A DNA stretch of 13,040 nt from the NCBI GenBank assembly GCA_031425655.1, contig JANPJS010000205.1:1-13040 (forward strand), read 5' to 3'. Below, one piece after another: positions 1 through 13,040 of the stretch. Position numbers and translations under genes: made by a program. Numbering within the stretch: the stretch's first letter is position 1; each line of letters opens with the position of its first letter. Origin of the DNA: Abditibacteriaceae bacterium. GTDB taxonomy: Bacteria; Armatimonadota; Abditibacteriia; Abditibacteriales; Abditibacteriaceae. The notes under the pieces were generated by a model. That model ran no database searches. It worked only from the letters and a program-made list of their open reading frames with translations, and was not told the origin of the DNA.

Positions 1-228
1 GCGGCGCGGCTTCAATTTCGGCACCGCAAAAGCGGCTTGGCAACGCCTCGAAGACGAAGAAACTGAGTGATTCTGGCGTTATGTAATGGAAAATCCTTCC
101 CGTCTTACCGCCCTTCCCGACTTACCGTTTAAGTATTTTCCATTACATAACGCCAGAATCACTCAGTTTCTTCGTCTTCGAGGCGTTGCCAAGCCGCTTT
201 TGCGGTGCCGAAATTGAAGCCGCGCCGC
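1..228. repeat. Perfect 94-bp inverted repeat (1-94 / 135-228, 40-nt spacer) duplicating the 3' end of recX; probable fold-back artefact at the sequence end
   Basis: 1-94 is the exact reverse complement of 135-228, extending to 98/131 with one mismatch (GGAAAATCCTT vs GGAAAATACTT). The + copy re-encodes RRGFNFGTAKAAWQRLEDEETE* at 2-70. Confidence 0.95.
95..127. repeat. Short tandem repeat, 2 x 16 bp, period 17
   Basis: CCTTCCCGTCTTACCG (95-110) and CCTTCCCGACTTACCG (112-127), one mismatch; built from 8-9-nt CTTMCCG subunits. Confidence 0.85.
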
Positions 229-818
229 ATCAAGAAATCGAAGATTTTCTTTTGACGCGCGCGGTCATCCAATGCTGTCCACAATCGCAATTTTGGGCGC
301 ACCGCGGTGACGGCGTTTTCAATCTCCATTTCGTCGTCGGGTAAGGCGGCTTCGATTTCTTCGCGCCCGACGCCTTTTTGCCGCAATTCCTGCTTGAGCG
401 CCCTTGCGCCGCGCGGACGATAAAGCGAGCGGTTTTCGACCCACGCCGACGCGAAATGCGCGTCGTCCACCAATTTTTCGTCGCGTAGGCGCTCCAAAAC
501 GCGCTCGGTGACTTCGTCCGGCCATTCGTCGCGTTGCAATCGCGCGCGGATTTCCTGCGCCGAGCGAATGCGATAACCCAGAAAAAACAGCGCGCGGGCG
601 TAAGCGCGGGCATCGCCGTCTTCGGCTAAAAGCTCGTTTAAAGTCGCGGCGTCCAGCCGAACATCGGGATGCAACCCGCGCCGCCGTGCCAGTTCGGCAT
701 CAAGCGCGAAGGAGAATTTATCGTCCACGAAGACGTTGACGCGCTCGCCGAGAAGCCGCCGCGTTTTCGCTTGGGCTACAACAGCGGTGATGATTCCGGG
801 AAAAGGTTGGCGCGCCAT
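159..818 (-). CDS. recX: Regulatory protein RecX (long form with N-terminal extension)
   Basis: 219 aa. N-terminal ITAV..Q..RVNVFVDDKFSF segment of long RecX proteins, then RecX three-helix repeats: ALFFLGYRIRSAQEIRARL, LVDDAHFASAWV, RGARALKQELRQKGV, KKIFDFLMRRGF. Confidence 0.95.
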   Translation of the reverse strand: MARQPFPGIITAVVAQAKTRRLLGERVNVFVDDKFSFALDAELARRRGLHPDVRLDAATLNELLAEDGDARAYARALFFLGYRIRSAQEIRARLQRDEWPDEVTERVLERLRDEKLVDDAHFASAWVENRSLYRPRGARALKQELRQKGVGREEIEAALPDDEMEIENAVTAVRPKLRLWTALDDRARQKKIFDFLMRRGFNFGTAKAAWQRLEDEETE

Positions 819-1202: not shown

Positions 1203-3032
1203 ATGAATAAGCTCATTTCGATTGCCCTGCCCGATACGTTTGAGATGTATCAGAACACTGACAGTCAATCGTTAAAATCGCTGCAGCCAACCTCCCAGAT
1301 CAATATCTTTGTTGGTTCCAATAACTCTGGGAAGAGTCGGTTCATGCGCTTGTTGGCTACGCAAGAAACATTCGAGGGGCTTCCGATGGGATTTGACCTT
1401 CAAAGTGCAAATGAGGAACTTACAGATGCCCTTTCTGAAATTGAATCCAGTCTAATTTCACATCGGCTTAGTGATGCTGGCGGGATCTCAAGAGATAGTG
1501 TGGGTATATTAAAACAACTGCCAACCGCACTCAGCATCAGCAAAGATGTATATCAAAATTGGCGTTCAGTAATTCAAAAATGGGTTGGCATTCAAGGTTT
1601 CAGTAATTGGAGTGGAAGTTCATCAGGTGACCCTAACAACCTCTCCTTTTTGAAACCAGTCCGTGAAGCTTCGGCAAGGGCATTTGCTGTCTTAGAAAAA
1701 ATTCCGCAACCTGCTGAGCAGAAGGCACCTAACCGAGTCTATATTCCGATCCTTCGAGGTCTGCGTCCCATAGATAAAGCTGGTAACGATGTGTATGCGA
1801 GGCGCACCACCGAGGATTATTTCAGCGAAGGGGAGATTCGGCCCCCTGAGATTTTCACGGGCCTCACATTTTTTCAACGTCTCACAGACTTACTCTTAGG
1901 GAGTAATTCCGAAAGAAAACTCATCAGCGAATATCAGAATTTTGTGTCGCAGGCATTTTTTGAGAGGCGGCCTTTGGCTCTCATTCCAAACCAAAAATCT
2001 GGCGTGGTTATGGTCAAGATCGGAAAGGAGCAAGACCGTCCCATCCATCATTTGGGCGATGGAATACAATCAGCCATAATCTTTTCCTTTCTTCCATTTG
2101 TAATGGAGGAGCCCACTTTTTTCTTCATTGAAGAGCCGGAATCGCATCTTCACCCAGGCTTGCAACGTAAAATTATGAAGTTTTTTGCGGACAGGCAGCA
2201 ACACACATTTTTCCTGACGACTCATTCCAACCATCTGCTTGATGTTACGATGGACATTAAGGAAGCCACAATTTTCACCTTTCGCAAGCAGATTGATCAC
2301 GACGCGGAAGACGATGAACAATCGGCAACTTTCACTGTTGAGAATGTGGATTCAGGGCATGGAAGCTCACTTGAGCTTCTGGGAGTGCGCAATTCATCTG
2401 TATTCCTAACCAATGCAACGATCTGGGTTGAGGGAATAACCGACCGTTGGTATTTACGAAAAATGCTGAAGTCGTATATGGAACACCTCGGCACCCCGGA
2501 GCGGTTTGAAGAAGATGTCCACTATTCTTTCGTAGAATATGGCGGAGCAAACATAACACACTGGTCTTTCTTGGACTGCGAAGATCACCCAATTGAGGTC
2601 ACACGGCTTTGTGCTCGTGCCATTTTAATTGTCGACGGCGACGGCTCAAGCAAACTTAAAAGGAAAGAAGCATTGGAGAATGAACTGGGAGACCGACTTT
2701 GCATTTTGCCATGCCGCGAAATTGAAAACCTGTTGCCCTACGAGGTGATTCGACAAGTTATTCTTGAATTCGAGAAAACGCCTGACAGGGAGCTTCCGGA
2801 AACCAAATACGAGTCTTACAAGGACAAGTATTTGGGACGATTTATCGAAGACAATCTCCTGAAAAAGGATTTCAATCGGCGCGGTGGATACAAAGCAGAT
2901 TCCGGCACAATTAAATCGAAAACAGATTTCTGTCAGCGCGCAATAGAGATAATTACTTTCGAGGCGCTGCCAGAATCCACACAAGGCGTCATTAAACGTA
3001 TCTACAAGTTCATCTACAGCCAGAATTCTTAA
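1203..3032 (+). CDS. OLD-family ATP-dependent nuclease (ABC-type ATPase fused to a TOPRIM domain), stand-alone; candidate anti-phage defence protein
   Basis: 609 aa. Walker A GSNNSGKS, signature-like LGDG, Walker B/D-loop FFIEEPESHLHPGLQ, H-loop TTHS. C-terminal TOPRIM motifs WVEGITD, EYGG, IVDGD and EIENLL. Visibly more AT-rich than its neighbours. Confidence 0.85.
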   Translation: MNKLISIALPDTFEMYQNTDSQSLKSLQPTSQINIFVGSNNSGKSRFMRLLATQETFEGLPMGFDLQSANEELTDALSEIESSLISHRLSDAGGISRDSVGILKQLPTALSISKDVYQNWRSVIQKWVGIQGFSNWSGSSSGDPNNLSFLKPVREASARAFAVLEKIPQPAEQKAPNRVYIPILRGLRPIDKAGNDVYARRTTEDYFSEGEIRPPEIFTGLTFFQRLTDLLLGSNSERKLISEYQNFVSQAFFERRPLALIPNQKSGVVMVKIGKEQDRPIHHLGDGIQSAIIFSFLPFVMEEPTFFFIEEPESHLHPGLQRKIMKFFADRQQHTFFLTTHSNHLLDVTMDIKEATIFTFRKQIDHDAEDDEQSATFTVENVDSGHGSSLELLGVRNSSVFLTNATIWVEGITDRWYLRKMLKSYMEHLGTPERFEEDVHYSFVEYGGANITHWSFLDCEDHPIEVTRLCARAILIVDGDGSSKLKRKEALENELGDRLCILPCREIENLLPYEVIRQVILEFEKTPDRELPETKYESYKDKYLGRFIEDNLLKKDFNRRGGYKADSGTIKSKTDFCQRAIEIITFEALPESTQGVIKRIYKFIYSQNS

Positions 3033-3050: not shown

Positions 3051-4535
3051 TCACGCCAAAATTTTGGTCACCGCGCTGCCGCCTTCGACGCCGGTTAATT
3101 TTGCGTCCAAGCCCTGAAATTTGTGGGTGAAACGGTTGCCGTCAATGCCCATTAAACGCAGCATGGTCGCGTGCAAATCGTAGATGCTGACCGGGTCACT
3201 GACGATGTTGTAACTGAAATCGTCGGTTGCGCCCAATGACATTCCCGGTTTGATGCCGCCACCGGCCAAAAACAGCGTGAAGCAGCGCGGATGGTGGTCG
3301 CGGCCATAATTGGTTTCGGTGAGCGTGCCCTGACTGTAAATCGTGCGCCCGAATTCTCCGCCCCACACGATGAGCGTGTCGTCGAGCAGGCCGCGCTGTT
3401 TGAGGTCTTGAATCAAGCCCGCCGTCGGCTGATCGGTGTCGCGGCACTGGCCTTTGATGGCCGCCGGCAGGCCGCCGTGATGATCCCAGCCCATGTGAAA
3501 AAGCTGCACGAAACGCACGTCGCGCTCGGCGAGGCGGCGCGCCAGCAGGCAATTCGCGGCGTAAGTGCCGGGCTTTTTCACGTCTGGGCCGTATAAATCC
3601 AACACGTTTTGCGGTTCCTTCGATGTGTCCGTTAAATCCGGCACACTGGCCTGCATCCGAAACGCCAACTCGTATTGCGCGATGCGCGTGGCGATTTCCG
3701 GGTCGCCGATTGCGGCATGATGCTTAGCGTTCAGCGCGCCCAATTCGTCTAAAGTTTCGCGGCGCATTTGCCTGTCTACACCGGGCGGATTCGACAAATA
3801 CAAAACCGGGTCGCCCGTGTTGCGAAACTTCACGCCTTGATGCTCCGAAGGCAAAAATCCGCTGCCCCACAAGCGGTCGTAAAGCGGCAGGTCGTCGCGG
3901 CGACCTGTGCCGAACGAAGTCAAAACTACATAGGCCGGCAAGTCTTTGTTGGCGCTGCCCAAACCGTAGTCAATCCACGAGCCGATGCTCGGATAGCCGG
4001 CGATTTGCCGTCCTGTCTGGAAAAACGTGATCGCCGGATCGTGGTTGATCGCGTCGGTGTGCATGGATTTGATGAAACACAAATCGTCGGCGATTTTGGA
4101 AACGTGCGGCATCAGGTCGCTGATCCACGCGCCGCTTTGTCCGTGCTGCGCGAACGTGAAAATGCTCGGCGCGACCGGAAAATTCTTCTGTCCGCTCGTC
4201 ATCGTGGTTAAGCGCTGACCTTTGCGGATGCTTTCAGGCAGGTTTTCGCCGCGACGATTGGCCATTTGCGGCTTGGGATCGAACAAATCCATCTGCGACG
4301 GCGCGCCCGATTGAAACAGGTAAATCACGCGCTTAGCCTTGACCGGAAAGTGCGGAAAACCGGGAATCATGCGGTTGCCGGGCGCAGCGGCGAAGGCGTT
4401 TTTGTCGAGCAAACCTTGCAGCGCGATAAGGCCCAACCCCGCCGCCGAGCGCGATAAAAACGTGCGCCGCGTGATGGCGAGCCGCTGCTGCGCGCTCAAG
4501 CCGCGAAACTCGTGATCGTTGCAGTTGATGTTCAT
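3051..4535 (-). CDS. DUF1501 domain-containing protein with a twin-arginine-like N-terminal motif
   Basis: 494 aa. TRRTFL followed by a hydrophobic stretch. Typical DUF1501 motifs AKRVIYLFQSGAPSQMDLFDPKP, CLLARRLAERDVRFVQL, GWDHH, WGGEFGRT, GRDHHP, DLHATML. Lies directly downstream of a DUF1549/DUF1553 gene, the usual arrangement. Confidence 0.93.
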   Translation of the reverse strand: MNINCNDHEFRGLSAQQRLAITRRTFLSRSAAGLGLIALQGLLDKNAFAAAPGNRMIPGFPHFPVKAKRVIYLFQSGAPSQMDLFDPKPQMANRRGENLPESIRKGQRLTTMTSGQKNFPVAPSIFTFAQHGQSGAWISDLMPHVSKIADDLCFIKSMHTDAINHDPAITFFQTGRQIAGYPSIGSWIDYGLGSANKDLPAYVVLTSFGTGRRDDLPLYDRLWGSGFLPSEHQGVKFRNTGDPVLYLSNPPGVDRQMRRETLDELGALNAKHHAAIGDPEIATRIAQYELAFRMQASVPDLTDTSKEPQNVLDLYGPDVKKPGTYAANCLLARRLAERDVRFVQLFHMGWDHHGGLPAAIKGQCRDTDQPTAGLIQDLKQRGLLDDTLIVWGGEFGRTIYSQGTLTETNYGRDHHPRCFTLFLAGGGIKPGMSLGATDDFSYNIVSDPVSIYDLHATMLRLMGIDGNRFTHKFQGLDAKLTGVEGGSAVTKILA

Positions 4536-4546
4536 AATCGTTGTTT

Positions 4547-4660
4547 ATTAACCACGGATGGACACTGATAGACGCTGATAGCTGGGAGTGGCTTTCTTTT
4601 GGGTCAATCTATCGAAAATCCCAATTTATCAGCGTTAATCCGTGTTCATCCGTGGTTAAT
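4547..4660. repeat. MITE-like intergenic element with 34-bp imperfect terminal inverted repeats made of ~10-nt subunits
   Basis: Left arm ATTAACCACGGATGGACACTGATAGACGCTGATA (4547-4580) matches the reverse complement of 4627-4660 at 30/34 positions; 46-nt spacer. Confidence 0.85.
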
Positions 4661-4663
4661 TCT

Positions 4664-7600
4664 TTACTCTCGTGTTACCACTTCGTCTAAGTTCAGCAGC
4701 ACGTTGGCAGTCAGCGTATAGGCGGCGAGTTCAGCAGTGTCCAGTTTTGCATCGGGCTTCGTGTCGCCGACGGCCAGCAATTTTTTGGCGCTGTCGGGGT
4801 CGGCTTTGAAGCGCGTCAGGCGCTTTTCGAGGCCTTTTTGCAGCACTTTGAGTTCGTCGGCGGCGGGAGCGCGGCCCGTCGTGCGGCGGAAGCCGTAAGT
4901 AATGCGCGCAGCCGGCGTTGCGCCGCCTTCGAGCAGCATTTTTTGCGCGAGCGCGCGAGCCGCTTCGACGTAAGTCACTTCGTTGAGCAGTGACAAGGCT
5001 TGCAGCGGCGTATTGGTGCGCGAGCGGCGAATCAGGCAGCTTTCGCGCGTCGGCGAATCGAAAAGCAGTTGCGACGGCGGCGCGGCGGTGCGCTTCCAAA
5101 TGGTGTAAAGCGTGCGACGGTAAAGCGCCTCGCCCGTATCGGCTTTATAGCCGCGCAGATCGCCGTAAACGCTGGTTTCGTCCCACACGCCGGGCGGCAT
5201 ATAAGGCCGCACGCTCGGCCCGCCGATTTTCTCCGCCAACAGGCCGCTGACTGCCAAAGCGTTGTCGCGGATTAGCTCTGCCGGCAAACGAAAGCGCGGG
5301 CCGCGCGCGAGCAAGCGGTTTTCCGGGTCGCGCTCCAAAAGCGAGGGCGACACTTTGGAACTCTGGCGATAAGTCGCGCTGGTCACCATGAGCTTTTGCA
5401 TCGCTTTCATGTCCCATTTGCGTGCGATGAACTCGGTCGCAAGCCAGTCGAGCAATGCGGGATGCGACGGCGGATCGCCTTGCGAACCGAAGTTTTCGCT
5501 GGTTTTTGATAGCCCCGTGCCGAAGAATTTTTCCCACTGTCGGTTAACCCAAACGCGCGCCGTGAGTGGATTTTTGGGGTCAACGATCCATTTCGCAAGG
5601 CCCAGACGGTTGTTCGGCGCGCCTTCCGGCAGTGCGCCAAAAAGTGCCGGCAGTGCGGCAGTGACTTCCGGCCCTTTTTTGTCGTATTCGCCGCGCAAAA
5701 GAATGTTGGCAACGCGCGGTTTATCCATTTCACGCATCACCATCACGGTCGGAATCTGGTCGTGATAGTCGTCTTCAGCTTTTTTGGCCTTTGCCAGTTC
5801 GCTTTCGGCCTGCTTCGCGGGATTGTCGAAATTGGTGCGATAAAACGCGAGAAGTTCGGCGCGCTGCTTGTCGCTGCGTGCCTCCGGCGCCAAAGCGAGA
5901 ACGGATTTGATCGTCGCAGGCACGCCGCCGCCGTTGAGTTTGGCCATCGCCGGGCCAAGCGATGTTGTGGAAACGCGAAAACGTCCGATGGAATGCTGCG
6001 CGAAGGCGTTAAATCGGAGGCGAATCACCAGCGATGCGCCGTCGGGCACCGTAGCGGGCGCATCGGGCAGGAACATCGCTTTGCGCGCCACGCGATTTTC
6101 GGGCAAATTGCCGCCAATCGCCCAGCCTTTGCCGGCCTGCGCTGCGATGGCGTATTTGACTTCGTAATCTTTCTGCGAGAAATCGGCTTCGGCTTTGGTG
6201 AAGGCGACAATTTTCGGCGGCGCGTCCGGCGCGCGGATTTCAGCTTCGATTTTGGAAAGCACAAAGTTGCCGTTGGAAGCGCGTCCGAGACTGCCCTCGA
6301 CGAGGCTGGCGTCGGGCAATGTTTCCATCAGAACACCGCCGAAACTGCCTGCCGCAAGCGGTGCTTCAAGCGTATAAATATCGTTTTCGGGATTGGTGCC
6401 GCTCGCTAAATAGGAGGCATCGGCTTGCTTTGTCAAGGTCGCGCCGCCTGCCGAAACCACGCTTTTCGGCACTAATGGCTGCCAAACGGATGGTTGATCG
6501 GCGGTTTTAGCGCGAAATTCCGGCTCCCACGCCGCGATAAGCTGCGGCAGGCGTTTTTCCGCTTCTTTAACGCGGATTTCGGCACTTTTGACGGCGCTAA
6601 TTAATCTCGCAAACTGGGCGCTTTGCTCTGCGCTTGGCACCTCGACAAACGGCTCCATATTGCCGCCGCTGCGATTCGACGGCCCGCGAATAACGCCGCT
6701 TTCCGGCACGTTATTGAAATAAGCGAAGAGTTGATAAAACTCTTTTTGCGACACGGGATCGTATTTGTGATCGTGACAGCGCGCACAACCCAAAGTCAGT
6801 CCCATCCAAGTCGCGCCGGTCGTGTCCACGCGGTCAATGATGTTTTCGATGCGCCATTCTTCGTCAATGATGCCGCCCTCGCCGTTGATGCGGTGATTGC
6901 GATTGAAGCCGGTGGCGACAATTTGCTCTTGCGTCGCGTTGGGCAGCATATCGCCCGCGAGTTGCTCGACAGTGAATTGATCGAACGGCTTGTTTTCGTT
7001 GAAAGCCTTAATCACCCAATCGCGCCACGGCCACATGAAACGCGAGCTATCGGTTTGAAATCCGTGGCTGTCGGCGTAGCGCGCGTAATCGAGCCACGGC
7101 ATCGCCATGCGCTCACCATAATGCGGCGAAGCGAGCAGCCTGTCCACGACTTTCTCGTAAGCATTCGGCGCTTTGTCGGCCACGAACGCGGCGACTTCTT
7201 CTGAAGTTGGCGGAATGCCGGTCAAGTCGAAGGAAACGCGGCGAAGCAGCGTGACTTTATCGGCTTCGGGCGACGGCGCGAGACCGTCTTTTTCCAAGCG
7301 TTCGAGAATGAAGCTGTCGAGCGGAGATTTGGCCCAGGTTTTGTTTTTGACGGTCGGCACGGCGGCGCGAAGCGGCGGTGTAAAAGCCCAGTGGCTTTTG
7401 AATTCGGCGCCTTCGGCGACCCAGCGGCGAAACAATTCTTTTTGCTCCGTCGTGAAAGTTTTGTGCGCTTCGGGCGGCGGCATCAAATCGTCTTCGTCCG
7501 TTGCGAAAATGCGCTTGATAATTTCGCTTTGGTCGGGTTTGCCCGGCACGATGGCGATTTTGCCCGATTTGCCGGCTTTGAGTGCTGCTTCGCGCTCGTC

Positions 7601-7771
7601 AAGGCGCAATCCGCCTTTGCGCGCTTTGGCGTCAAAGCCGTGGCAGCGAAAACAGGTATCCGACATGATGGGCCGGATGTCGCGGTTGAAATCTACTTTG
7701 GCGGCGCGGGCGCTGGAACTCAAAGCCAACAACGCCAAAACGCCGAATAGAGTTTGCGAATGAATTTTCAT
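4664..7771 (-). CDS. Planctomycete-type cytochrome c (PSCyt1) / DUF1549 / DUF1553 (PSD1) domain protein, secreted
   Basis: Sec-type signal peptide MKIHSQTLFGVLALLALSSSARA (alternative start at 7780). VDFNRDIRPIMSDTCFRCHG and GCARCHDHKYDP haem-binding CxxCH motifs. DUF1549 motifs LLRRVSFDLTGIPP, YGERMA..WLDYARYADS. DUF1553 motifs NPLTARVWVNRQW, PSHPALLDWLA, RSRTNTPLQAL. Confidence 0.93.
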   Translation of the reverse strand: MKIHSQTLFGVLALLALSSSARAAKVDFNRDIRPIMSDTCFRCHGFDAKARKGGLRLDEREAALKAGKSGKIAIVPGKPDQSEIIKRIFATDEDDLMPPPEAHKTFTTEQKELFRRWVAEGAEFKSHWAFTPPLRAAVPTVKNKTWAKSPLDSFILERLEKDGLAPSPEADKVTLLRRVSFDLTGIPPTSEEVAAFVADKAPNAYEKVVDRLLASPHYGERMAMPWLDYARYADSHGFQTDSSRFMWPWRDWVIKAFNENKPFDQFTVEQLAGDMLPNATQEQIVATGFNRNHRINGEGGIIDEEWRIENIIDRVDTTGATWMGLTLGCARCHDHKYDPVSQKEFYQLFAYFNNVPESGVIRGPSNRSGGNMEPFVEVPSAEQSAQFARLISAVKSAEIRVKEAEKRLPQLIAAWEPEFRAKTADQPSVWQPLVPKSVVSAGGATLTKQADASYLASGTNPENDIYTLEAPLAAGSFGGVLMETLPDASLVEGSLGRASNGNFVLSKIEAEIRAPDAPPKIVAFTKAEADFSQKDYEVKYAIAAQAGKGWAIGGNLPENRVARKAMFLPDAPATVPDGASLVIRLRFNAFAQHSIGRFRVSTTSLGPAMAKLNGGGVPATIKSVLALAPEARSDKQRAELLAFYRTNFDNPAKQAESELAKAKKAEDDYHDQIPTVMVMREMDKPRVANILLRGEYDKKGPEVTAALPALFGALPEGAPNNRLGLAKWIVDPKNPLTARVWVNRQWEKFFGTGLSKTSENFGSQGDPPSHPALLDWLATEFIARKWDMKAMQKLMVTSATYRQSSKVSPSLLERDPENRLLARGPRFRLPAELIRDNALAVSGLLAEKIGGPSVRPYMPPGVWDETSVYGDLRGYKADTGEALYRRTLYTIWKRTAAPPSQLLFDSPTRESCLIRRSRTNTPLQALSLLNEVTYVEAARALAQKMLLEGGATPAARITYGFRRTTGRAPAADELKVLQKGLEKRLTRFKADPDSAKKLLAVGDTKPDAKLDTAELAAYTLTANVLLNLDEVVTRE

Positions 7772-7874
7772 GCGGCACATTCTTTACTGTCAAAACTGCT
7801 GGTTCGACAAGGTATTTGGAGTGGAGTTACAGTTTAGCCTTCTTGCGGATACAGGTTGCGCTGCGTGACGATAC

Positions 7875-8185: not shown

Positions 8186-9544
8186 ATGCGCTCTAAATCG
8201 CAACGCCGCAAGGCTAATGAAGGATTGTTGGGCAGTCCCGTGGCCACGCTGCCCGTCAGTGAATGCGCTTCGATGCACGAGGCGTTTTTGTCGCTGCCGC
8301 GCGCTTGCGGAGCCACCAATTTGTCGTCGGCTTATCGCATTCTCTACAAGGCCATCACCGAAGAAGTGCCGCTTGTGCTTTCGATTTCCGGCATCGGAAG
8401 CCTGTCGAATCAGACGCGTTTCTGGATCAATTCGATGGTCGAAGCCGGCTACATCGCGGTGATTTCCACGACCGATGCGCTCGTTTATCACGACGGGCAC
8501 GATGCGCTGCGGCCCACGCCGCGCGGGCGCAAAGTCGAGCGGCCTGTGCGCGAAGTGAATCCGAACGGGGACGACGGCATTTACCGGGATAACCGCATTA
8601 TTCGCGTTTACGATGTCGGCTTCAAGGAAGAGATTCTTGAAGAGCAAGACCGCGTCACGCGCTGGTTTTTCCAGCAGCCGGAATTGCAGCACCCGATGAC
8701 CACGACCGAGCGCAATTTTCGTATGGGCAAGCTTTTCGATGCCTTGGAACAAGTGCGCGGCGTCGAATCCGGCCTCGTTTCCACTTGTTACAAGCACGCG
8801 GTGCCGATTTTCATCGGCGCGCCGGGCGACGGCTCCAATTCGCTGGGAATGCTGCCGCTTTTGATGAACAAGCAAGTTCACGGCGAGCCGTTCGGCTTCA
8901 ATTACGACCCGCTCGGCGACGTGATGGAAGCGTGCGCGTATCACTTCTGGGGCTTGTTCAGCAATCCCGTCAACGAGCTGGGCATTCTCATCATGGGCGG
9001 CGGCGTGCCCAAGAATTTCGCGCTTCAGCCGGAGCCGTCGCTGTTGCAGAATTTCATGCTGGATGAAGGCAAACACGAGGTTCGCGGCTACAAATACGAC
9101 CTGCAAATCACCAGCGCTCCGGTCTCGGACGGCAGTTTGTCGTCGTGTCCGCCGTCCGAAGCCGTCAGTTGGGGCAAAGTAGATCGCGACACGTTTCACG
9201 ATACCACGGTCAGCGTTTTCGGCGATTACACGCAGCTTTTCTGGCCGTTAGCCTACGCGATTTTCGAGCGCCGCCGCGAATTGGAAAAGCAAGTCGCCGC
9301 GTTGTCGGAAAAAGACAAAAAGCAGTTCTTCAAAGAAAACGCCGAAGCGCGCGGCCTGCTGCGTCCGGGCGGCCCGCCGCGACTTTTCGAGCAGCGCAAA
9401 AAGCTGATGGCCGACTTTTACAAAATCGCCGGCTCCAAGAAAAACACGGCGCGCATCAAAGAATGGTATGGCGGCAACCGCGAGTTGCTGGACACGCTTG
9501 ACGCATTGCGCGCTCAGGGCGCGTTGGATGTCGGCGAGATTTAA
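8186..9544 (+). CDS. Deoxyhypusine synthase family protein (bacterial DHS-like; possible homospermidine/polyamine synthase)
   Basis: 452 aa. Motifs LVYHD, IRVYDV, PIFIGAPGDGS, GILIMGGGVPKNF, LQITSAPVSDGSLSSCPPSEAVSWGKV, the last retaining the imine-forming catalytic Lys of the EAVSWGK motif. Confidence 0.9.
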   Translation: MRSKSQRRKANEGLLGSPVATLPVSECASMHEAFLSLPRACGATNLSSAYRILYKAITEEVPLVLSISGIGSLSNQTRFWINSMVEAGYIAVISTTDALVYHDGHDALRPTPRGRKVERPVREVNPNGDDGIYRDNRIIRVYDVGFKEEILEEQDRVTRWFFQQPELQHPMTTTERNFRMGKLFDALEQVRGVESGLVSTCYKHAVPIFIGAPGDGSNSLGMLPLLMNKQVHGEPFGFNYDPLGDVMEACAYHFWGLFSNPVNELGILIMGGGVPKNFALQPEPSLLQNFMLDEGKHEVRGYKYDLQITSAPVSDGSLSSCPPSEAVSWGKVDRDTFHDTTVSVFGDYTQLFWPLAYAIFERRRELEKQVAALSEKDKKQFFKENAEARGLLRPGGPPRLFEQRKKLMADFYKIAGSKKNTARIKEWYGGNRELLDTLDALRAQGALDVGEI

Positions 9545-9685: not shown

Positions 9686-12600
9686 ATGGAAGAAGCATCG
9701 AAGACGAGCAACCTCAGCGCGACCCAAGACGCCACCGACGAAACGCGGCCCGTTGTTCTCATCGTCGAAGACGAAAAAGACGCAGCGCTACTGCTGAATC
9801 GCATTTTAAGTGATTCTTATCGCGTTTACAGCGCTGGTGATGGGCGCGCCGGGCTTGAAAAGGCCATCGAAGTGCGCCCTGACCTCATTCTTTGCGACTT
9901 GATGATGCAGGGATTGTCGGGCAGCGAACTGGTGCGCGCGGCCCGCGCTCTACCGGAATTGGATGCTGTTCCCATTGTGGTATTGACCGCGCTACACGAT
10001 GCGCGTCTTCGCGCCGAACTTTTGCGCGATGGCGCGCAGGATTACCTCACTAAACCTTTCGAGCCGGAAGAATTGCTGACGCGCGTGGCCCACCATATTG
10101 CCGTGGGACGCGCTCGCAGCGCACTGCGCGCCGAAATTGCCCCGGATGTGGCGCCCGCAGCCTCGCCGCACCACCGCGTGCCGGCGCAAGACCTGGCCGA
10201 TCTCGCGGCGCAGGTCGCAGCGCAAAAGCGCACGCTGGAAAGCACTCTGGAAACACTGCGGCGCAGCCGTGCGCTTTATCATTCGTTAGCCCGCGATTTC
10301 GCGCACGCCGCCGGAGTGTTTTTCGACCGCGAACTCCGTTTCACAGCGGTTCAAGGCGAAGGTTTCGCTTCCGGCGTGGCCGAAGGCGAGATTGTTGGCA
10401 AAACCGCTGTCGAAGTATTTCCCACGGCCCTCTCGGCCATTCTGGAGCCTCATTTTCGCGCCGCTTTGAATGGAATTGCCACAACTTTTGAACTGCCCGA
10501 TGCCGACAATCAGGGGCGTCTGTCGCTGGTGCGCGCTCTGCCGGTGCAGGACGAAGCCGGGAATGTGACGGGCGGGCTGGCAGTTATCCAAAACGTGCGC
10601 GAACATCAACTCGAAGAAGACGAATGGCAAGGTTTTCAAGCGCGCATTCTTTCGCAGGTCGAAGATGCCGTCAATGCTGTGGATGCCCATCATCGCATTA
10701 TTTATTGGAATCATGCCGCAGAGCGACTTTATGGCATTTCGGCAGAGGAAGCTCTGGGACGCACTCTGACCGAAATTTACGATTACGAGTGGGTTGGTAT
10801 TGAGCGCCCCGTCGTTTTGGAGGCTTTAGAATGTGACGGTTGGTGGAAAGGCGAATGTTGGCATCGTTTGCACCGCGATGGACGTGAGATTTCCGTGGAA
10901 GTATCGCTGAGCTTGCTGCGTGAGCCGTCTGGTAAGCCGTCCGGCTTTTTGGCGGTCATCCGCGATATTACCGCCCGCAAGCGGGCTGAAAGTGCGCAGA
11001 GCATTTTGTCGGAAGCCGGCGCGGCGCTGGCCGCTTCGCTGGATTATGATACGACCGTTGAAACACTGGGCCGTCTTTGCGTCCCGGCGCTGGCGGAGCT
11101 ATGCGTCATTGACTTCGTTGCGCCCGGCGCGGCAGACGGCCCCTTGGGCAACGGACGGGAGGCCAGTCCGCTTGTCGCGCGGCGGGCGCTGGCGCAGCAC
11201 GCCGACCCGGAACGCGCGCACTTAGCCAACAAGTTGCTGGATTATCCGCAGCGTTTCCTTGCCGGCTCGATCCCAGCGCAAGTGCGCTCCAACGCGCAGT
11301 CGCGCCTTTTGTCTCAAGTTACGGACGAAATACTACGCGCCGCCGCCTACGACGACGAACACTACGCGCTTTTGCATGAATTAAACATACGTTCGGCGAT
11401 TGTCGCGCCTCTGATTGCGCGTGGAGGTCTGATCGGCATTGTTTCGCTGGTCAACACGGCAGAGCGCCCGCCATTTAGCGAATACGACTTGCATATCGTC
11501 GAAGAACTGATGCGCCGCGCGGCTTTGGCATTGGAAAATGCGCACCTTTACTCGGAAGCGGAAAAAGCGCGCCACGAAGCCGAAGCCGCCGACCGCGCTA
11601 AAGACGAATTCTTAGCCGTTGTTTCGCATGAGTTGCGCACGCCGCTCACGCCCATTTTAGGTTGGGTTTCGATGCTGCGCGACGAAGGTAAGCCCGGCAC
11701 TCCGGGCGCATTGGACGACGACACGCGCGCTCACGCCCTGCTTACAATTCAACGCAGCGCCGAACAGCAAGCGCAACTGATTGACGACCTTTTGGATGTG
11801 TCGCGCATTATTTCCGGCAACGCCCGTTTGCATTTGCAGCCGGTGCGTTTACGTTCGATTGTCGAGGCCGCTTTGGAAACGGCGCGCGCGCAGGCCGGCG
11901 ACAAAAATGTGGCGATATGGACTTCTTTTGACCCTGCCCTCGGCGTAGTCGAAGGCGACGGACGGCGGCTTCAGCAAGTGGTAGCTAACCTGCTGTCCAA
12001 CGCCATCAAATTCACGCCGTCGGGTGGGCGTGTGGAAGTTCAACTCGCCGACAGAGATGGTTGCGCCGAATTGATGGTGCGTGATAGTGGCATCGGCATC
12101 GAACCGGAATTCTTGCCGCAGGTTTTTGAGCGTTTCAGTCAGGCCGATTCCTCGACCAGCCGCACTTTCGGCGGTTTGGGATTGGGGCTTGCCATCGCGC
12201 GCCACATCGTGCAGTTACACGGCGGAACTATTAGCGCTTCGAGCGAGGGACAAGGGCAGGGCGCGGCTTTCTTCGTTACTCTGCCGGTGCAGTTGCCGGA
12301 GAATTTTCAGCCGGGCGAGGCTTTGTCCAGTCTGTCGTGGCTGCCGAATGCAGGTGCTTCTCCTCAAACAGCCGCTTTATTCAATGACAGAGTATTGGCA
12401 GGTAAACATGTGCTCGTGGTTGATGATGAGGACGCGACGCGCGATATGTTAGCCGAGGTGCTGCGTCAGGGCGGCGCCATCGTTGAGATTGCAGATTCGG
12501 CTCACGCAGCCCGCGTGGTTTTAGCACGATGGCGACCGGATGCCATGGTCTGTGACATCGGAATGCCCGGCGAAGACGGCTACACATTTATTAAATTTCT

Positions 12601-12772
12601 GCGCGCTTTGCACCCCGACGATGGTGGAACATTGCCGGCTATCGCGCTAACCGCCTACGCGCGTGCCGAAGACCGCCAGCGTGCGCTTGCAGCGGGATTT
12701 AACCGGCATATTTCCAAGCCCGTCGCACCACCCGACCTGATTCTGGCGGTCGCCGAGATTGTGGCGCGCTAA
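9686..12772 (+). CDS. Cytoplasmic hybrid sensor histidine kinase/response regulator (REC-PAS-PAS-GAF-HisKA-HATPase_c-REC)
   Basis: 1028 aa. N-terminal REC (LIVEDE, LCDLMM, VLTA, KPF). PAS (YWNHAAERLYG..EEALG, RDITARK). GAF (LAASLDYDTTV, SAIVAPLIARG, ALALENAHLY). H-box VSHELRTPL, N-box NLLSNAIKFT, G1 DSGIGI, F-box VFERF, G2 GGLGLGLAI. C-terminal REC (VVDDE, CDIGMP, ALTA, KPV). No obvious transmembrane segment. Confidence 0.95.
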   Translation: MEEASKTSNLSATQDATDETRPVVLIVEDEKDAALLLNRILSDSYRVYSAGDGRAGLEKAIEVRPDLILCDLMMQGLSGSELVRAARALPELDAVPIVVLTALHDARLRAELLRDGAQDYLTKPFEPEELLTRVAHHIAVGRARSALRAEIAPDVAPAASPHHRVPAQDLADLAAQVAAQKRTLESTLETLRRSRALYHSLARDFAHAAGVFFDRELRFTAVQGEGFASGVAEGEIVGKTAVEVFPTALSAILEPHFRAALNGIATTFELPDADNQGRLSLVRALPVQDEAGNVTGGLAVIQNVREHQLEEDEWQGFQARILSQVEDAVNAVDAHHRIIYWNHAAERLYGISAEEALGRTLTEIYDYEWVGIERPVVLEALECDGWWKGECWHRLHRDGREISVEVSLSLLREPSGKPSGFLAVIRDITARKRAESAQSILSEAGAALAASLDYDTTVETLGRLCVPALAELCVIDFVAPGAADGPLGNGREASPLVARRALAQHADPERAHLANKLLDYPQRFLAGSIPAQVRSNAQSRLLSQVTDEILRAAAYDDEHYALLHELNIRSAIVAPLIARGGLIGIVSLVNTAERPPFSEYDLHIVEELMRRAALALENAHLYSEAEKARHEAEAADRAKDEFLAVVSHELRTPLTPILGWVSMLRDEGKPGTPGALDDDTRAHALLTIQRSAEQQAQLIDDLLDVSRIISGNARLHLQPVRLRSIVEAALETARAQAGDKNVAIWTSFDPALGVVEGDGRRLQQVVANLLSNAIKFTPSGGRVEVQLADRDGCAELMVRDSGIGIEPEFLPQVFERFSQADSSTSRTFGGLGLGLAIARHIVQLHGGTISASSEGQGQGAAFFVTLPVQLPENFQPGEALSSLSWLPNAGASPQTAALFNDRVLAGKHVLVVDDEDATRDMLAEVLRQGGAIVEIADSAHAARVVLARWRPDAMVCDIGMPGEDGYTFIKFLRALHPDDGGTLPAIALTAYARAEDRQRALAAGFNRHISKPVAPPDLILAVAEIVAR

Positions 12773-12849
12773 CAGCGAATTAGACAGAAATATTCTAAAT
12801 ATTCACCTTGCGCAGTGGAGTGTGTTAGGCAGACAAATTCAAGAAGCGC

Positions 12850-12871
12850 TGTCATTCTGAGTCCTGCCCAG
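12850..12871. repeat. Probable half of a REP-like palindromic repeat interrupted by the IS110 element
   Basis: TGTCATTCTGAGTCCTGCCCAG directly abuts the IS end. TGTCATTCTGAG / CTCAGAATGACA is, from recall, the terminus of a widespread intergenic palindromic repeat family. The partner arm is not in the window. Confidence 0.45.
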
Positions 12872-13040
12872 AGATTCTATGGTTGAAGTCAAGGGGTTGG
12901 CCACTGGTTTTGGGGATTTTGTTGATAAACGCGGTTTGGGTCGTAGGTTGTGCCGTGGGTGACCAGCGACCAACACAAGCGGGCCAGTTTACGCGCGACG
13001 GCACACAAAGCGGCGGTGGACGACAAGCCTTTGGCGCGTT
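12872..13040 (-). mobile_element. Right end of an IS110-family (IS621-like) insertion sequence, truncated by the window end
   Basis: The transposase stop is followed on the - strand by TTGACT-TCAACC-ATAGAAT-CT: an outward -35 box (12892-12887) and a donor-like end with a CT core (12873-12872), resembling the IS621 end ACAGTAT-CT. Very short right end. Confidence 0.8.
12889..13040 (-). CDS. IS110-family transposase/recombinase, C-terminal 49 aa (partial; 5' part outside the window)
   Basis: Hand translation of 13038-12889: RAKGLSSTAALCAVARKLARLCWSLVTHGTTYDPNRVYQQNPQNQWPTP*. It matches the G....A..AVARKL.R..WSL......YDP C-terminal signature of IS110 enzymes. Absent from the ORF track because it lacks a start codon. 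Confidence 0.88.
   Translation of the reverse strand, partial: RAKGLSSTAALCAVARKLARLCWSLVTHGTTYDPNRVYQQNPQNQWPTP

Follow-up and report, generated by a model that had tools for sequence, protein, structure and literature searches.

An IS110-group element of an Abditibacteriaceae genome with predicted bridge-RNA guides and a nested hairpin cassette as its putative target

What mobile element ends at the edge of a contig from an Abditibacteriaceae bacterium, and what kind of site did it enter? The stretch analysed here (the window, 13,040 nt) is the entire contig C205 of a genome assembled in 327 contigs, and an open reading frame runs off its right-hand end. The best explanation of this end is that it belongs to an IS110-group bridge-recombinase element, present in about ten copies, whose target, GGGYGCC-CT-CTGGG, lies within a nested hairpin cassette. 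From the sequence comparisons set out below, we give this reading a probability of roughly 0.93.

The element end and its copies

The frame that runs off the contig (13038-12889, minus strand) encodes 49 amino acids beginning RAKGLSSTAALCAVARKLARLCW, with 152 nt from position 13040 to its stop. An earlier, sequence-only reading had taken these last 152 nt for an IS110-type C-terminus on the minus strand. Searched alone against Pfam, the 49 residues match no IS110 model, the single match being to DUF4235 (E 0.028). Contig C101 holds a copy with the same 49 residues, in which the frame continues to 121 amino acids; this copy reaches PF02371 (Transposase_20) with an E-value of 7.5e-16, above the cut-off, and bears the assignment out. 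The open 121-aa piece retains the QSG catalytic-loop motif, which is invariant in the alignment of relatives and aligns to the SG of ISCro4. The stop had also been said to overlap a TTGACT box followed by a six-nucleotide gap, and this too is what is found: TGA (12891-12889) lies inside TTGACT (12892-12887), after which comes TCAACC. The pattern TTGAC-N7-ATAGAATCT has a single occurrence in the window, and 0 of 200 shuffles contain it. The features of the locus are as follows.

9686..12772, plus strand: hybrid histidine kinase/response regulator gene, an undisturbed neighbour
12803..12862, minus strand: host REP-like repeat of the GATTCTTC...CTCAGAATGAC family plus tail, which carried the cassette; many copies by BLAST
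12863..12871, minus strand: CTGGGCAGG, the cassette's right half; the putative right target guide CCCAGAG is the complement of CT-CTGGG
12872..12873, minus strand: CT core dinucleotide and element boundary, present at 10/10 right ends and 9/9 left ends
12874..12880, minus strand: left donor half ATAGAAT, of which AGAAT plus the C of the core is matched by the putative donor guide
12887..12892, minus strand: TTGACT (-35), the same box at all right ends
12889..13040, minus strand: final 49 codons and TGA stop of the IS110 recombinase gene, which is truncated where the contig stops

The host repeat lies directly downstream of the kinase gene, which is convergent with the element. The ATA of ATAGAAT is part of a short 5-bp inverted repeat, CCATA/TATGG, around the core; a short inverted repeat at this position is among the features described for the IS110 group (PMC11208160). 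Elsewhere, the window encodes a protein of the deoxyhypusine synthase family in a bacterium (8186-9544, plus strand; PF01916, E 1.9e-38) and an AAA_21/AAA_15 ATPase with a weak OLD-like TOPRIM match (1203-3032, plus strand; E 0.022), possibly a defence gene judging from these matches. RecX (159-818, minus strand) and a DUF1501 plus PSD1/PSCyt gene pair (3051-7780, minus strand) are ordinary for such genomes.

Across all contigs of the genome, TTGACT-N6-ATAGAAT has ten matches (on C15, C23, C58, C71, C97, C101, C154, C205, C248 and C302), each followed by CT-CTGGGC and each located 99-363 nt from a contig end. The right-end boundary TTGACTTCAACCATAGAAT-CT is identical in all ten. The sequence-only reading had tied its case to other copies ending at ATAGAATCT, and 10/10 right ends stop there. 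For the opposite end, a search of the genome with CTTGTATGG gives 16 matches, nine of which are found where contigs end, follow GGGYGCC and represent a common left end; the remaining seven are internal and unrelated, and eight of the left ends were reconfirmed with a longer pattern. All nine left ends start GGGYGCC-CT-TGTATGG (GGGTGCC in seven, GGGCGCC in two) and are 99-100% identical. Visual comparison matches the left flanks to the right flanks according to host-repeat family (4+4, 2+2, 1+1, 1+1 and 1+2), and the empty site is therefore GGGYGCC-CT-CTGGGC.

The assembly breaks at the element, and the DEDD half of the gene and the far part of the left end are absent from the contigs of this genome, where a profile search for the DEDD half matched only two other IS110s. 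In a sequencing run that may be the source of the window (X1), a 1250-nt contig starts at the junction of target and left end, with a depth of 120 compared with 10-21 for flanking contigs; in two further runs (X2 and X3), 254-nt contigs start at the same junction. The genome also contains two other IS110-family genes with 340- and 509-aa open frames (C54, loci L001/L004; C81, loci L003/L005) and a decayed relic of the element's clade (C135, about 11394-11545).

Alternatively, the copies of this IS110-like element might be decayed or non-autonomous, their target choice no longer depending on a bridge RNA and arising instead from, for example, homologous recombination between repeats. The middle of the gene is absent from the assembly, and in the closest relative (G003) the copy has a frameshift and is interrupted by another IS. 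Furthermore, the right ends comprise two C-terminal recombinase variants, in five copies each, with synonymous differences that assort across both; together with a mosaic copy, this suggests recombination among element copies. Nevertheless, the element has exact boundaries in each of five different host-repeat contexts, its left ends are almost uniform, and the 121-aa piece is open with its catalytic-loop motif kept. We consider decay unlikely and retain the reading of an element that would choose its target through a bridge RNA.

In IS621, as its mechanism is described in PMC11208160 and PMC11208158, excised elements supply the model for what follows: the present element would form a circle, and the joined ends of the circle would make a promoter. 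Read together, the two ends give TTGACT-17-TATGGT, which agrees with a sigma-70-like consensus at 9 of 12 positions, as a consensus match only. The forecast that a -10 box would start about 2 nt into the left end was accurate, TATGGT following after 2 nt with a spacer of 17 nt. A circle junction of this element is found neither in the assembly nor among the loose ends listed (6 of 10). Right-left junctions were seen only in relatives, at 4 of 152 loci. One of these, that of L069, reads TTGACG-17-TATGGT and lies inside a 1361-nt contig that corresponds to a permuted whole element. The four junctions could also represent tandem copies or assembly loops rather than circles.

The two ends differ greatly in length, with about 15 nt between stop and core at the right end and a left end of at least 170 nt in this genome and 268 nt in the closest relative. 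This bears on a second alternative, namely that the element belongs to the IS1111 group, which shares the protein family PF02371. Elements of that group are described as having a long right end that contains the guide RNA, together with subterminal inverted repeats of 7-17 bp (PMC11208160). Here the guides are carried by the long left end, the right end is short and the inverted repeat is of 5 bp; membership of the IS1111 group is refuted by the end lengths, and we attach next to no weight to it.

Putative guides, relatives and the comparison with IS621

Two segments of the left end correspond to the target. GGGTGCCCT, which equals the left target plus core, is reached by 8/9 left ends and is identical in all of them; CCCAGAG, the complement of the core plus CTGGG, is reached by 7/9, again all identical, the others ending early. 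AT follows and, further along, GAAGAATC. By the IS621 scheme, GGGTGCCCT, CCCAGAG, AT and AGAATC are the putative left target guide, right target guide, handshake dinucleotide and left donor guide, respectively. A comparison of left-end guides with the flank had been proposed at the outset, and both target guides match the target exactly. The donor left half first proposed, ATAGAAT, is identical to IS621 at 7 of 9 positions when the core is included; the donor guide matches AGAATC only, not all of ATAGAAT, and ATA belongs to the inverted repeat. The position of the right donor guide reads RYAAG-GG in relatives, while the assembled left ends of this genome stop before it.

Folding of the left end gives a z-score of -2.49. 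When 20 left ends chosen by hand are folded to a consensus, both target guides are unpaired and 10 of 27 pairs are compensatory. The left guide, compared by eye with the flank in a 20-row alignment, agrees at 7/7 positions in 14 rows, at 6 in three and at 5 in one, a shift of 1 nt being needed in two. An Rfam search with a related left end gave 0 matches at E<=1, and the exact left-end pattern had 0 matches in metagenome contigs. In the minimum-energy fold at L006:231-385, UCUGGG of the RNA pairs with the right guide CCCAGA and closes the target loop. The hairpin nature of the target makes this pairing possible, and the modelled structure may be a self-inhibiting fold.

Relatives in the same bacterial family share 94% (G003), 80-84% (G005), 75% (G006) and 73% (G016) identity with the element over the shared part, and the nearest titled records are Abditibacteriaceae assemblies. 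The copy in G003 (L011 and L028) has an imperfect left flank, GGGAGCC. Full-length relatives, 73-84% identical to the element in the part they have in common, contain PF01548 (DEDD) in 4/4 cases as well as PF02371, and long relatives pass NF033542 (199 bits, with a cut-off of 140). A profile of the relatives matches the structure of IS621 with an E-value of 3.7e-30 and that of ISCro4 with 1.2e-30. Thus, of the initial description as an IS621-type orthologue, membership of the IS110 group and a target of its own survive, whereas close orthology does not, the element being a distant member by that profile. In a plasmid collection only distant IS110s were found, all 734 matching records falling below 60% identity.

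Covariation of guide and target is seen among the relatives, where 69 of 108 loci could be parsed to give 38 unique guide pairs. The right guide agrees with the flank at 4.65 of 5 positions (37 pairs; shuffled, 1.77+-0.22) and the left guide at 3.67 of 7 (33 pairs, with a crude anchor and several rows mis-registered; shuffled, 2.68+-0.20). Neither value is reached in any of 10,000 shuffles, a significance that is overstated because related elements are kin. The donor ATAGGAT is accompanied by the donor guide GGGAT in 10/10 cases, while GGGAT accompanies 0/56 other donors. Across these alignments, the predicted guides change together with the targets.

IS621 of E. coli is an IS110-group element whose bridge-RNA mechanism is described (PMC11208160, PMC11208158), and its donor, ACAGTATCTTGTAT, is printed in an oligonucleotide (PMC13396178). 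The present element resembles it in having a CT core, a predicted junction promoter across right and left ends, a repeat as its target, and a putative bridge RNA in the long left end with the target loop ahead of the donor loop. The right donor half TGTAT is identical, as are 12 of 14 donor bases overall. In the published IS621 scheme, the right target guide is followed by a handshake dinucleotide that pairs with positions 6-7 of the donor (PMC11208160, PMC11208158), and the AT found here can do the same. The target, in contrast, is a different one, as the sequence-only reading had claimed: GGGYGCC-CT-CTGGG has 4 of 11 bases in common with ATCAGGCCTAC and lies in a cassette found in many repeat families, whereas that of IS621 lies in one REP family. 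Potential pairing of the right target guide spans 7 nt, compared with 4 in IS621, the left donor guide matches 6 nt compared with 8, and the protein is only distantly similar (the profile E-value given above).

Every IS110-group feature that could be tested is present, and on this sequence evidence the element is predicted to work like IS621. By that model, a bridge RNA would be transcribed from the left end, and a DEDD/Ser recombinase would exchange strands just after the CT core. The proposed guided recombination site is GGGTGCCCTCTGGG. The target can form the hairpin TGCCC-TCT-GGGCA, and exchange would fall in its loop. Whether IS621 itself is excised by a cut-out or a copy-out route is debated (PMC13626964; 10.64898/2026.08.31.748434).

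REP targeting by IS110 elements is established in the literature covered. ISPpu10 of Pseudomonas putida is likewise described as an IS110 element that enters palindromic repeats between genes, with duplication of CT and a target able to form a stem-loop (10.64898/2026.03.19.712850); ISPpu9 of the same species reportedly behaves alike. The stem reported for ISPpu10 forms between a 5' extension and the left target; here the core lies at the centre of the hairpin, whose arms are therefore the two guided halves, with the predicted cut in the loop. A literature search for IS110 in the Abditibacterium or Armatimonad lineage gave no paper containing IS110 among the matches listed, and the element tables of PMC11208160 may already contain the clade. 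Titles and the opening lines of abstracts in the IS110, REP, RAYT and SDR literature hold nothing on this clade.

The hairpin cassette at the target

The cassette, C-GGGYGCCCTYTGGGC-AGG, is a hairpin of about 19 nt. GGGYGCCCTYTGGGC is present in about 276-277 copies in the genome, preceded by C in 94% and followed by AGG in 84-97% per base, with no consensus further out. No intact cassette is found in the window, where the right half remains at 12863-12871; the sequence-only reading had not recognised this flank as part of a high-copy nested hairpin. Only 32 of 273 cassettes fall inside long ORFs, although these make up 81% of the genome; the cassette is thus mostly intergenic, and it is found within many unrelated REP-like repeats.

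For 171 of the 273 copies, a short allele with the same 9+9 flanking bases exists elsewhere in the genome, as against 9 for about as many randomly chosen sites. Relative to the short allele, the cassette represents a gain of 15 nt in 135 cases and 14 nt in 27. Both alleles are present in eight of nine hand-chosen repeat families, and in the 109-copy family to which the window's repeat belongs, 79 copies have the short allele GCAAG and 23 the cassette. Where the short allele is 7 nt long, its sixth base is G in 72 of 73 flank pairs, many of these pairs being variants of one repeat; the cassette therefore replaces N4G. A replacement rule as strict as this would point to a candidate single-strand processing enzyme for the cassette. 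Our guess would be that the cassette moves by a single-strand (HUH-type) swap inside repeat DNA, the enzyme being hypothetical.

Other arrangements are seen at comparable sites of the genome. The flanks AAAGCCGTT..AAAGCGAAGC and TCATTCCGAG..GTCGAGGAAT hold other hairpin inserts, of 23-30 nt, at the same replaceable spots. Cassette sites on C253 (about 377-421), C25 (about 8803) and C86 (about 7679) include some with chimeric flanks, the left from one repeat family and the right from another, and one perfect palindrome of two right halves. From their sequence, the chimeric flanks and the palindrome suggest recombination at the cassette.

The cassette occurs in 21 of 24 genomes of the family, and among 41 genomes the one studied here has the most. 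Four others, G009, G011, G012 and G014, contain 34, 36, 13 and 75 copies (3, 1, 2 and about 40 contigs, respectively), in other repeats and in inverted doublets; none of the four has a close recombinase match by protein or the right-end motif. A junction of element and cassette is found in 2 of 301 genomes of the phylum, the present one and G016, the latter having 10 right ends and 24 empty cassettes.

It might be supposed that the IS110 element itself gave rise to the cassette, for example as a footprint of imprecise excision or a product of half-match recombination, and that the cassette is not an independent repeat. The guides do equal the centre of the cassette exactly, the genome richest in cassettes among the 41 has ten element copies, and half-match recombination is reported for IS621 (10.64898/2026.08.31.748434). 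Such an origin would nevertheless leave unexplained the cassettes of the four genomes that lack this IS clade, the rarity of the junction in the phylum, and the extension of the cassette past the guides (a leading C and a trailing GC-AGG), and related elements have been retargeted to other sequences. We regard a footprint as very improbable. As a repeat, the cassette is independent of the element, and in these genomes it is probably the older of the two.

The relationship between clade and cassette can also be followed among relatives. In a tree built by a quick method from 84 rows (107 loci with matches plus the present element, with short, non-C-terminal and duplicate rows dropped), in which the row of the present element is 36% filled, the rows that target the cassette are basal within a clade of 48 rows (support 86), and other targets are nested inside it. 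This gives only a hint that the cassette may be the ancestral target of the clade. Two relatives (L087 and L130) have the guide CCCAAAG, which fits a TTT loop variant of the cassette, and in another (L041) the core is shifted by 2 nt, with TT as the left core, in the same cassette. Between filled and other sites in the genome, neither the T versus C variant (7:2 and 100:117, p 0.088) nor TCT versus TTT (10:0 and 217:59, p 0.22) differs significantly, though both lean towards the perfect match.

How does the cassette compare with known small repeats? A literature search for its sequence in both orientations found no paper. The small dispersed repeats of Nostoc, reportedly described by Elhai et al. 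in 2008, are said to be short, high-copy and mostly intergenic hairpins, like the cassette. REP/REPIN sequences associated with RAYT, as presented in PMC3116915, share these properties and, like the cassette, often form inverted doublets. As in REPINs, the cassette is high-copy, extragenic and palindromic (276 copies; 32/273 in long ORFs). It differs from both REP/REPIN and the Nostoc repeats in being only about 19 nt long, in lying inside other repeats and in replacing 4-5 nt for a net gain of 15. It differs from REPIN-RAYT systems in that no transposase gene was found with it: none of six Y1_Tnp (PF01797) loci has an exact cassette within 2 kb, some of these loci being near contig ends in an assembly of 327 contigs. 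C12 (4782-5123, L149) and C70 (3418-3744, L150) each carry a RAYT-like Y1 transposase gene with hairpin repeats at its flanks, and the repeats on C12 resemble one host family of the cassette.

A tentative scheme, to which we give somewhat less than even odds, would bring these observations together. A mobile hairpin of about 19-20 nt would spread by swapping 4-5 nt ending in G (net +15) in dozens of unrelated REP-like repeats, and the IS110 clade would be a specialised hyperparasite upon it (repeat, then cassette, then IS), its guides tracking loop variants.

Significance of the nested target

What is new here is the nested target cassette; the element itself belongs to an already known kind of IS110 bridge recombinase. 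The element adds a readable natural set of guide, target and donor, together with a small series of retargeted relatives that have one common donor. Such a set may be useful for bridge-recombinase engineering, though 5,511 target-RNA pairs are already catalogued according to PMC11208160. With the core-centred hairpin, one could ask whether a structured target favours or impedes bridge recombination.

The target matters more than the element. As the cassette is common to many repeat families, it would provide the element with hundreds of mostly intergenic landing sites, and RNA-guided aim at one tiny cassette would thereby give access to many safe sites. The fixed +15-nt, G-anchored replacement rule, for its part, is a handle on the spread of very small repeats and on the diversification of REP families.
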